In this document: one piece after another, positions 10,581-12,230 of the stretch
Layout of the letters: each line of letters opens with the position of its first letter
How positions within the stretch are numbered: the stretch's first letter is position 1
From: Candidatus Nanohalobium sp.
Lineage (GTDB): Archaea; Nanohalarchaeota; Nanosalinia; Nanosalinales; Nanosalinaceae
Direction of reading: 5' to 3'
Assembly: GCA_042217555.1 (NCBI GenBank)
Contig: JBDGSL010000017.1
Coordinates: 1 to 13,967, forward strand
Length of the DNA stretch: 13,967 nucleotides
The notes under the pieces: model-generated
What the model was told of the DNA's origin: nothing
Seen by the model: the letters and a program-made list of their open reading frames with translations, nothing else
Database searches by the model: none
Position numbers and translations under genes: made by a program

Positions 10581-10593
10581 GAAAAGATTTAAG
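10581..10593 (+). promoter_or_regulatory. Archaeal BRE/TATA-like promoter for the proS leader
   Basis: GAAAAGA-TTTAAG, with the TATA-like part 25-30 nt before ATG 10618. This spacing is expected for a leaderless archaeal transcript. Confidence 0.55.
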
Positions 10594-10617: not shown

Positions 10618-10647
10618 ATGTCTGGTGACTACGTTCCTCGGCAGTAG
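10618..10647 (+). CDS. Putative leader peptide uORF1 (MSGDYVPRQ)
   Basis: ATG TCT GGT GAC TAC GTT CCT CGG CAG TAG. It sits at the predicted transcript start and shares a motif with uORF2. Confidence 0.6.
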   Translation: MSGDYVPRQ

Positions 10648-10699
10648 AATATTTGAGAGTTCTTTTAGTCGCCAGAATACCGAATTTTCCGTGATTTCT

Positions 10700-10756
10700 A
10701 TGAACAAAGTTTCAACTACAGGTGGATACGTTCCACCACGACAACAGATTCGATAA
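10700..10756 (+). CDS. Putative leader peptide uORF2 (MNKVSTTGGYVPPRQQIR)
   Basis: It has tandem CCA CCA Pro codons at 10733-10738 and shares G-x-Y-V-P..R-Q with uORF1. Confidence 0.6.
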   Translation: MNKVSTTGGYVPPRQQIR

Positions 10757-10862
10757 CTATCGAAACTTTGGAGAAGTTTCTGGTGTTGCAGAAACTCGAA
10801 GAGTTTCGAACCACTCAAAATCCTTTAACAACACTTTTTTCCTCAACTTCTGGTGAACGCTG

Positions 10863-12083
10863 GTGAGACGCAGTAATCTCTTCGTAACCAGTTCCAAAGA
10901 GACAGAAGCCGACACGCACTGTAAAAGTGCCGAACTTGCGGTACAAGCAGGGCTTGTCCACAACTACGGCTCTGGAACCTTTGGATTCTCCCATCTCGGT
11001 CAGAGAGTTCTGAATAACATAGAATCAGTGATCAGAGAAGAAATGGACGAAATCGGGCAAGAAGTGAAGATGAACCTTCTCCAGACCAGTGAACTGTGGG
11101 AGAAGTCAGGGCGTTGGAAGAACTTTGAAGGAGAAGAGTTCTTCAACTTCAAGAACAGAGACGACAAAGACTTCACCATCGCCGCAACACACGAAGAAGC
11201 ATCCGTAGAACTCACAAAGAAGTACATCCGAAGCTACAGGGATCTCGACCTAACGATCTACCAGATCGGCAGAAAGTTCAGAGACGACCACGCCAGAAAC
11301 GGTCTTTTGCGGACGAAAGAGTTCATTATGAAGGACGCCTATAGCTTCCACAAAGACAGAGAAGGGCTACAGGAGAAGTACCGTGAGTTCCTCAACGCCT
11401 ACCGAACTATCTTCGACAAGCTCGGACTTGAGTACTCTGTCGTTGCCACTGACAACGGCTCTATGGGAGGAAGTCAAAGCCACGAATTTATGGCCGAAGC
11501 AGAAATCGGAAGCGACACCTACCTGAAATCCGACAACTGTGAGTTCGGAACCAAGAATCTTGACACTGGAAACTGTGGCAACTGTGGTTCAGAGCTCCGT
11601 GAAGTGAACGGTATAGAGATCGGTCACTGTTTCAAACTTGGAACCCGATACAGCGAATCTATGGATCTAACCTTCGATACCGAAGAGGGAGATACAGAGA
11701 ACGTGGTTATGGCCAGTTATGGGATCGGAGTAAGTCGATTGATTTCAGCGATCATAGAGCAGAATCACGATCAGAATGGCATCACTTGGAATGAAGAAGT
11801 GTCTGCTTTCAACTTTTCTGTGATTGCCGCAAGGCACGAAGAGGAAGTAACGGAGAAAGCAGAGAGCATCTATCAAGAGCTACAGGAGCAGGGAGTAGAC
11901 GTTCTGCTTTATGACGGTCAACTATCTACAGGCGAGCAGTTCAGGGAGTCTGATCTTCTCGGAGTCAACCGCAAAGTTATCGTGGGCAGTAATTTCCTTG
12001 AGAACGGAAAGATTGAGATAGAGTCCAGAAGCGGAGAAAAGAAGGAAGTTGAAGCAGGAGAAATGGTGGAAGAAATGAGCTAA
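10863..12083 (+). CDS. proS: Prolyl-tRNA synthetase, bacterial-type, short form without the INS editing domain; contains no proline
   Basis: Motifs include LWEKSGRW, THEE, motif 2 YQIGRKFRD...EFIMKDAYSF, MGGSQSHEF, GIEIGHCFKLG, motif 3 MASYGIGVSR and a class IIa anticodon-binding domain. It starts with GTG. Confidence 0.93.
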   Translation: MRRSNLFVTSSKETEADTHCKSAELAVQAGLVHNYGSGTFGFSHLGQRVLNNIESVIREEMDEIGQEVKMNLLQTSELWEKSGRWKNFEGEEFFNFKNRDDKDFTIAATHEEASVELTKKYIRSYRDLDLTIYQIGRKFRDDHARNGLLRTKEFIMKDAYSFHKDREGLQEKYREFLNAYRTIFDKLGLEYSVVATDNGSMGGSQSHEFMAEAEIGSDTYLKSDNCEFGTKNLDTGNCGNCGSELREVNGIEIGHCFKLGTRYSESMDLTFDTEEGDTENVVMASYGIGVSRLISAIIEQNHDQNGITWNEEVSAFNFSVIAARHEEEVTEKAESIYQELQEQGVDVLLYDGQLSTGEQFRESDLLGVNRKVIVGSNFLENGKIEIESRSGEKKEVEAGEMVEEMS

Positions 12084-12159: not shown

Positions 12160-12230
12160 GGCGGGATAGTGTAGCGGCATCATCGCACGTTCGGGACGTG
12201 CGGACGGCGGTTCGAATCCGCCTCCTGCCA
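12160..12230 (+). tRNA. tRNA-Pro(CGG)
   Basis: The cloverleaf has acceptor GGCGGGA/TCCTGCC, D-arm GTG/CAT, anticodon arm GCACG-TTCGGGA-CGTGC, T-arm GGCGG-TTCGAAT-CCGCC and discriminator A. It has no intron and no separately encoded CCA tail. Confidence 0.95.

Follow-up and report, generated by a model that had tools for sequence, protein, structure and literature searches.

The window, by which we mean the whole stretch of 13,967 nucleotides analysed here, encodes a prolyl-tRNA synthetase (ProRS) that contains no proline. Its gene lies between a leader with two proline-codon sites and a gene for tRNA-Pro (Table 1). Read against the archaeal TATA-like promoter consensus, the TTTAAG element and its spacing from the start codon of uORF1 suggest a leaderless transcript. 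In an Rfam search of the window only the tRNA reaches the gathering score, with no T-box or other RNA leader family. An earlier note on this DNA had interpreted the enzyme as a rescue synthetase purged of proline. That interpretation is supported here, although the note missed the leader, the adjacent tRNA-Pro and a second copy of the gene.

Upstream of the leader, window:2097-10525 holds island-like cargo: a tyrosine recombinase, three APH-family kinases (one a GNAT fusion), a metallo-beta-lactamase-fold protein, a methyltransferase, a cytidine deaminase-like protein and two GNATs. Part of this cargo is repeated on contig C83 of the same genome (G000), which carries the second proline-free copy with its leader and tRNA at 90% DNA identity. 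Two more partial archaeal ProRS genes occur at the starts of contigs C62 and C34. The extra copies on these three contigs may reflect strains mixed in the assembly.

Table 1. Features of the ProRS locus, with positions in the window.
Feature	Position	Strand	Description
TATA-like TTTAAG	10588..10593	+	25-30 nt before the uORF1 ATG
Leader	10618-10856	+	Two GG-x-V-P sites upstream of ProRS
uORF1	10618..10647	+	MSGDYVPRQ, then stop; sensor site 1 GGT GAC TAC GTT CCT, Pro codon 10636-10638
Relay segment B	10637..10732	+	+1 frame after site 1; 32 codons, open, Pro-free, in frame with site 2
uORF2	10700..10756	+	MNKVSTTGGYVPPRQQIR, then stop; conserved GTGAT..ATG start within segment B
Sensor site 2	10721-10735	+	GGT GGA TAC GTT CCA; Pro codon 10733-10735
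Relay segment C	10734..10856	+	+1 frame after site 2; 40 Pro-free codons, TGA stop
Proline-free bacterial-type (P-type) ProRS	10863..12083	+	406 aa, GTG start, TAA stop
tRNA-Pro(CGG)	12160..12230	+	G1:C72, A73; D-loop shortened by 2 nt relative to the tRNA-Pro usual in the family

Identity of the enzyme

By its profile matches, the 406-aa product is a bacterial-type, family II ProRS without an editing domain. It scores 422 bits against TIGR00409 (proS_fam_II; cut-off 306.7), remains below the 437 bits of TIGR00408 (archaeal/eukaryote-type, family I) at 115.6 bits, and matches the Pfam families tRNA-synt_2b (PF00587) and HGTP_anticodon (PF03129). The INS editing domain is absent, and a short Cys-rich insert occupies its position. 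An AlphaFold model (pLDDT 87) superimposes on the ProRS of Rhodopseudomonas palustris (PDB 2I4L) with a TM score of 0.93; that enzyme has the same fold and motifs and likewise no editing domain. INS-less ProRS of this kind, including the halobacterial sister group described below, nevertheless have at least 8 prolines each, against none in the window's enzyme.

Active-site columns common to bacterial ProRS are present (T109, E111, E112, R140, E153, F154, M156, D158, Y160, E208, E252, H255, Y286, G287 and R292). Some of these we take to line the amino-acid pocket, and a literature search for their roles there found no paper. The columns of motif 2, motif 3 and the pocket are invariant in all 64 full-length members of the proline-free clade, and one change, FRDE to FRDD, occurs in the clade and in the halobacterial sisters alike. 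The enzyme is predicted to form Pro-tRNAPro. A proline-rich sister is the only ProRS found in three of five halobacterial genomes tested (G070, G077 and G083), so this lineage can probably work on archaeal tRNA.

Exclusion of proline

Retranslation confirms the absence of proline, and all neighbouring coding sequences contain it, both as first noted. The genome (1.31 Mb, with an acidic proteome) averages 3.33% proline in a heuristic ORF set, at which the probability of no proline in 406 residues is 1.1e-6; the earlier estimate, at 3%, was about 4e-6. Among 523 ORFs of at least 250 aa, only three lack proline: the window gene, the C83 copy (96% identical) and one 271-aa ORF. Seven housekeeping synthetases of the same genome retain their own amino acid.

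The sites from which proline was said to have been replaced are proline-bearing columns in outgroups. Of 21 outgroup sequences, proline is found in 18 at H44, 19 at N71, 11 at T75, 19 at A108, 21 at D129, 11 at A144, 21 at N310, 21 at A315, 9 at T356 and 20 at N369. One proposed replacement, RPR to HAR, has to be set apart from the purge, because 47 of 66 proline-rich halobacterial sisters likewise have Ala there.

Close homologs are also free of proline. Among the best 120 of 7,993 homologs, a gap in identity separates 72 sequences at >=60% from 48 at <=54%. Of the 73 proteins formed by the former group and the query, 66 have no proline, and the total is 8 prolines in 28,128 residues; the 48 more distant homologs have 10-30 each. 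The GPTHEE proline is retained in two clade members, and several of the other six prolines lie in extended or apparently shifted protein ends. The nearest named homologs (78-79% identity) carry the source label nanohaloarchaea. In an 81-row tree from a quick search, the 19 sampled members form one clade, sister to a proline-rich halobacterial group, with SH-aLRT support of at least 96 for both. These sisters share 42-54% identity with the window's enzyme and the same shortened RDDHAR loop, and have 10-21 prolines per protein.

Parsimony on trees of similar length places 2 changes to proline among 3,890 in the 64 full-length members, compared with 66 among 3,696 in 66 sisters. Per substitution, proline gain is thus about 35 times as frequent in the sister group. 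Elsewhere, 157 of 171 listed loci yield a filtered ProRS, of which 153 have at least 8 prolines, the exceptions being one clade member and three phage proteins. Metagenome and genome scans returned one clade member and one sister among the matches listed. The proline-free homologs and the rarity of proline gains agree with the proposal that selection removed proline from this protein, and from these sequence comparisons we regard selection against proline in the clade as close to certain.

Distribution and genomic context

Of 70 genomes of the phylum, 12 carry the proline-free ProRS; these belong to a single family, within which they are spread across genera. The archaeal-type ProRS that the earlier note had suggested looking for is present in the window's genome (contig C27; 21 prolines, 4.1%; TIGR00408 score 546.5 bits). 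This type is seen in nine of the 12 carriers, and the other three genomes are 75-82% complete. Judged by these gene inventories, the proline-free ProRS is an accessory gene that co-occurs with a housekeeping ProRS. The housekeeping gene directly follows it in G022 and lies within 1 kb in G058. In G015 (L006 / L243) the proline-free gene is frameshifted near codon 95, and a partial second copy lies about 6 kb upstream.

A tRNA-Pro gene, with anticodon CGG or TGG, lies immediately 3' of the proline-free ProRS in 4 of 14 full loci. We therefore rejected the tRNA as a fixed part of a cassette and regard it as an optional passenger. G003 (L251) has a second copy of tRNA-Pro(TGG), located behind the ProRS gene, and the two copies differ at two points in the T stem. 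The metagenome-assembled genome G000 yields 7 tRNAs at default settings, and an intron-bearing tRNA-Pro(TGG) lies on its contig C88. ProC was found in 2 of the 70 genomes and was not found in G000, which is 94% complete; this archaeon appears to take up its proline from external sources.

Architecture of the leader

Upstream of the proline-free ProRS genes we identified a shared motif, GGT-G(A/G)N-NNN-(G/A/C)TT-CCN. To the set of 14 loci examined, the 12 carrier genomes contribute 13 and a metagenome contig one; the partial second copy of G015 and a truncated copy in G002 are left out. The set contains 28 such sensor sites. The pattern was derived from these same loci and widened for two variant sites, and the resulting counts are not independent, because the loci are kin.

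The frame layout is consistent throughout the set. All 14 site-to-site segments run in the +1 frame without a stop. The last segments, which by definition run to the first stop, end in 13 of 14 loci in a TGA that overlaps the ProRS start by 4 nt; in the window the TGA lies 6 nt before the GTG. Segment lengths take 15 different values, all multiples of three. The relay frames contain no proline in 963 codons, against 86 in 1,870 codons in the other two frames of the same DNA. In G067, which has three sensor sites, and in G002 the last relay segment is about 98 proline-free codons long (L237:2724-3032 and L007:349-642); neither frame has a Pfam match, and the G002 ProRS behind its leader is reduced to a C-terminal part.

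The sites themselves are similarly constrained. A GGTG(A/G) with a 4-nt spacing to the P-site codon is present in 27 of the 28 sites, and GGTGA is the second commonest pentamer before genes in G000. The P-site codon is GTT in 24 cases, ATT in two, CTT in one and GTC in one, and is followed by a proline codon. The latter is CCT 10 times, CCA 10 times and CCG 8 times. CCC, which makes up 12% of proline codons here, is never used; a +1 shift on it would leave a proline codon in the A site.

Scanned across G000 for any amino acid, the +1 layout occurs only before the two proline-free ProRS copies, a +2 version occurs nowhere, and the same pattern gave no similar relay for other amino acids. None of 30 loci of the proline-rich halobacterial sisters has a site within 500 nt; the sisters also differ in that they can serve as the sole ProRS of a genome. 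Leader folding is no better than that of shuffled sequences (z -1.0), although hairpins are predicted.

The 6-nt gap of the window is a genuine allele: contigs of two sequencing runs, from which the genome may have been assembled, carry exactly this sequence. Another allele, lacking one base at 10841, is present in four runs. In Haloferax volcanii, as described in extracts of one study (PMC10666635), coupling requires that genes overlap or lie very close together; re-initiation of 40-60% is left at a gap of 13-14 nt, and distances of -8 to +10 nt are taken as predictive of coupling.

The same leader before other genes

The site-1 pattern was found 42 times, spread over 30 of the 70 genomes, compared with 11 times for a reversed control, and 30 of the 42 matches were followed. 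Eight lead to the proline-free ProRS. In G057 a clean two-site relay leads into a gene for a ProC-ProB fusion, with a ProA-like gene behind it, and in G016 a relay broken by a proline and a sequence gap precedes the same kind of operon. Three matches have the housekeeping ProRS behind them (one clean, two imperfect), and two precede an operon of DUF34/NIF3, tRNA-binding protein and ProRS. Two run off contig ends. The remaining 13 were rejected as apparent chance matches, which fell inside genes or had no target behind them. Imperfect relays outside the proline-free clade include those of G024 and G038, with a proline inside, and of G061, where the stop comes 12 nt early.

Both genomes with ProC thus have the leader before their proline-biosynthesis operon, and this points to proline supply. 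The ProC-ProB fusion and ProA-like proteins (L342:979-3821 and L343:3305-6126) have 6-7 prolines each in 430-517 aa. The DUF34/NIF3 gene follows a single sensor site and precedes the tRNA-binding protein and the housekeeping ProRS (L345:932-1699 and L346:2299-3141); its product has no proline in G038 and two in G034, counted in G034 from the start reached by the relay.

A parallel in jumbo phages

The viral records G071 (L221), G072 (L222) and G073 (L223), of 480-520 kb, encode ProRS proteins with 0, 0 and 3 prolines, respectively. Among 56 short relatives, selected by identity (>=46%), 51 have no proline and the rest have 1-3. The phage proteins branch apart from the archaeal clade and their replacement residues are mostly different. 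A single origin of proline loss in nanohaloarchaea and phages is not rejected with all columns (p-AU 0.054) and is rejected after 19 proline-rich columns are dropped (p-AU 0.006), in quick LG+G4 trees of 31 of the 81 rows. On this phylogenetic evidence we conclude that the jumbo phage ProRS lost proline separately.

The pattern in phages extends to other synthetases. In the 508-kb record G072 (L222, L296-L301) we recognised 12 synthetases in 140 kb, 11 of which have at most one residue of their own amino acid. Eight have none (Thr, Asp, Pro, Val, Trp, Tyr, Phe-like and Ala-like), three have one (Asn, Gln and Gly-like), and SerRS is partly depleted, with 12 Ser in 423 residues. AspRS, ProRS and GlnRS adjoin clusters of cognate tRNAs. 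TrpRS has no Trp in both G071 and G073, and MetRS has 4 Met in G071. The rule has exceptions: depletion is absent from the GluRS of G071 and G073 and from the IleRS of G073.

Two further phage genes may be mentioned. The G071 GluRS has 3 Gln in 519 aa and adjoins a protein with a GatB-like end. A 391-aa ORF with one Arg (L296:14901-16076) lies beside ThrRS and AsnRS; it has no NCBIfam match at 1e-15 and is possibly an unrecognised Arg-related rescue protein.

A proposed backup synthetase reached by frameshifting

We propose that shortage of Pro-tRNA causes serial +1 slips in the leader, through which ribosomes reach a ProRS that can be made without Pro-tRNA. We give this reading a probability of about 70%. 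Its parts differ in strength: that the proline-free ProRS is an inducible backup we consider very likely, and that frameshifting is the means of control, probable. The proline codons of the leader point to induction on Pro-tRNA shortage.

While charged tRNA-Pro is plentiful, the proline codon of uORF1 or uORF2 would be read and the ribosome would terminate a few codons on, short of the ProRS. When Pro-tRNA is scarce, the ribosome would pause at CCN with an empty A site, held by pairing to the internal Shine-Dalgarno-like GGTG(A/G). The P-site tRNA on NUU could then slip +1 onto UUC, and decoding would continue from a codon for Leu, His or Arg. A ribosome that had slipped twice in this way, each time into a proline-free frame, would terminate at the ProRS start and re-initiate. 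The enzyme could be made at full speed during the shortage, because its gene has no proline codon, and would raise the charging of tRNA-Pro. Some details sit less well with frameshifting: one site has GTC, which would re-pair poorly after the shift, the Shine-Dalgarno-like motif stands at 4 nt, and the window copy has a 6-nt gap in place of an overlap. The first shift may also be dispensable, because uORF2 has its own Shine-Dalgarno sequence and ATG.

As for the trigger, we favour proline starvation over an antibiotic, a toxin or a toxic proline analogue, because the leader precedes the proline-biosynthesis operon in both ProC-bearing genomes of the 70. An extra synthetase would help a starving cell only if charging is limited by the enzyme or if its Km is lower. 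The backup logic could also be kept with a different trigger, namely attack by a toxin, antibiotic, proline analogue, host defence or virus on the archaeal ProRS or tRNA-Pro. The bacterial-type enzyme would then be insensitive and the extra tRNA-Pro a replacement. Arguing for this case, backup and housekeeping enzymes belong to different ProRS families, the backup is patchily distributed (in 12 of 70 genomes), the window copy sits amid kinases, acetyltransferases, methyltransferases and an integrase, tRNA-Pro follows the gene in 4 of 14 loci (in G003 as a second TGG copy), and the purge seen in jumbo phages likewise occurs next to cognate tRNAs. Counter to this, proline-biosynthesis genes and the housekeeping ProRS itself stand behind the same leader, an arrangement that would be no help against most attacks, and what adjoins the gene in other carriers is not defence cargo but the housekeeping ProRS or LysRS. 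We consider attack an unlikely trigger. The leader is blind to the cause of the shortage, however, and starvation and attack may therefore both apply.

The leader might instead sense Pro-tRNA by stalling alone, through transcription attenuation or exposure of a downstream Shine-Dalgarno sequence. In most loci uORF2 does have its own Shine-Dalgarno sequence and ATG, hairpins are predicted in the leader, and frameshifting on E. coli pheL is described as incidental to attenuation in the parts of PMC5009743 that treat it. Stalling alone, though, leaves unexplained the open proline-free +1 frames, with their 15 lengths all multiples of three, and the stop-start overlap in 13 of 14 loci, and the leader folds no better than shuffles. 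We judge it slightly less probable again than attack as the trigger.

A different role for the enzyme would be mischarging. Without editing it could load Ala, Cys or another imino acid on tRNA-Pro, and its proline-free state would protect it from its own substitutions. This would fit the missing INS domain and the variability of position 207 in the clade (H in 42 and R in 17 of 64), where 64 of 66 sisters have E. However, conservation extends to the columns of the core pocket, the genome has a YbaK/ProX-family protein, and INS-less ProRS with normal proline content are common as housekeeping enzymes. Depletion in phages, moreover, spans many synthetase families, and therefore fits bootstrapping without a change of substrate. 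Mischarging is accordingly improbable in our view. We give almost no credence to proline loss through neutral change, halophilic composition bias or codon reassignment: nothing beyond the acidic proteome speaks for it, whereas the genome holds 3.33% proline and the housekeeping ProRS 4.1%, the equally acidic sisters keep 10-21 prolines, proline gains are reduced about 35-fold, and various codons and residues occupy the former proline sites.

Relation to known systems

Auxiliary resistant synthetases, such as the Streptomyces TrpRS and the MupA IleRS, and the regulation of synthetase genes by T-boxes or attenuators offer precedents for the proposed backup ProRS: shortage of charged tRNA induces an additional synthetase from a different family. 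T-box systems differ in that no T-box or other Rfam leader is present in the window. Alves and Savageau reportedly described, in 2005, a cognate amino-acid bias of biosynthetic enzymes, which has in common with our case that proteins required when an amino acid runs short contain little of it. Here the exclusion is near-absolute, takes in otherwise invariant structural prolines, and concerns a synthetase.

The closest likeness to the leader is prfB, the gene for release factor 2, which has a short zero-frame ORF and an internal Shine-Dalgarno-like motif 3 nt before the shift, under negative feedback (PMC5009743, in its section on that gene). Shared with prfB are the short zero-frame ORF, the NUU P-site codon and, as proposed here, a +1 shift at a slow A site, and the Shine-Dalgarno-like motif may be a further likeness; a short zero-frame ORF and a conserved +1 frame are present for all 28 sites of the 14 loci. 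None of the 28 sites has a CUU-U shift site at which the A site holds a stop codon. In the leader described here the A-site codon is a sense codon for proline, two or three sites follow one another, the spacing is 4 nt rather than 3, the organism is an archaeon, and the product would be reached by re-initiation and not as a fusion. In ermC, too, a frameshift on a leader ORF turns on the next gene, but it is ketolide-induced and acts by unfolding the mRNA (PMC5009743, in part). On pheL the shift likewise occurs on a leader ORF, the difference being that it is described as incidental (same source and part). As of 2016, no productive frameshift specific to starvation at hungry codons was known, according to the portion of that review on the subject (PMC5009743).

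Our own literature search, which did not extend to subscription journals or bioRxiv supplements, found no paper on the phage pattern, the leader or this enzyme. The parts of the system are themselves known. Taken jointly, we lean towards the view that serial +1 frameshifts at hungry cognate codons are an undescribed form of sensing in archaea, and that a synthetase stripped of its cognate amino acid is a general rescue design, which would have evolved separately in nanohaloarchaea and in about 11 synthetase families of jumbo phages.

The proline-free clade indicates that a class II synthetase can lose every proline under selection, including those invariant in all 21 outgroups. If the proposed control is true, it would represent a productive use of hungry-codon frameshifting and an amino-acid sensing mechanism in DPANN archaea. 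Through the phage parallel, lack of its own amino acid becomes a simple computable marker of a rescue synthetase. The parallel also yields a testable prediction on how phages counter tRNA-targeting defences. If the reading is true, phage synthetases would restart translation after the host cuts the supply of charged tRNA.
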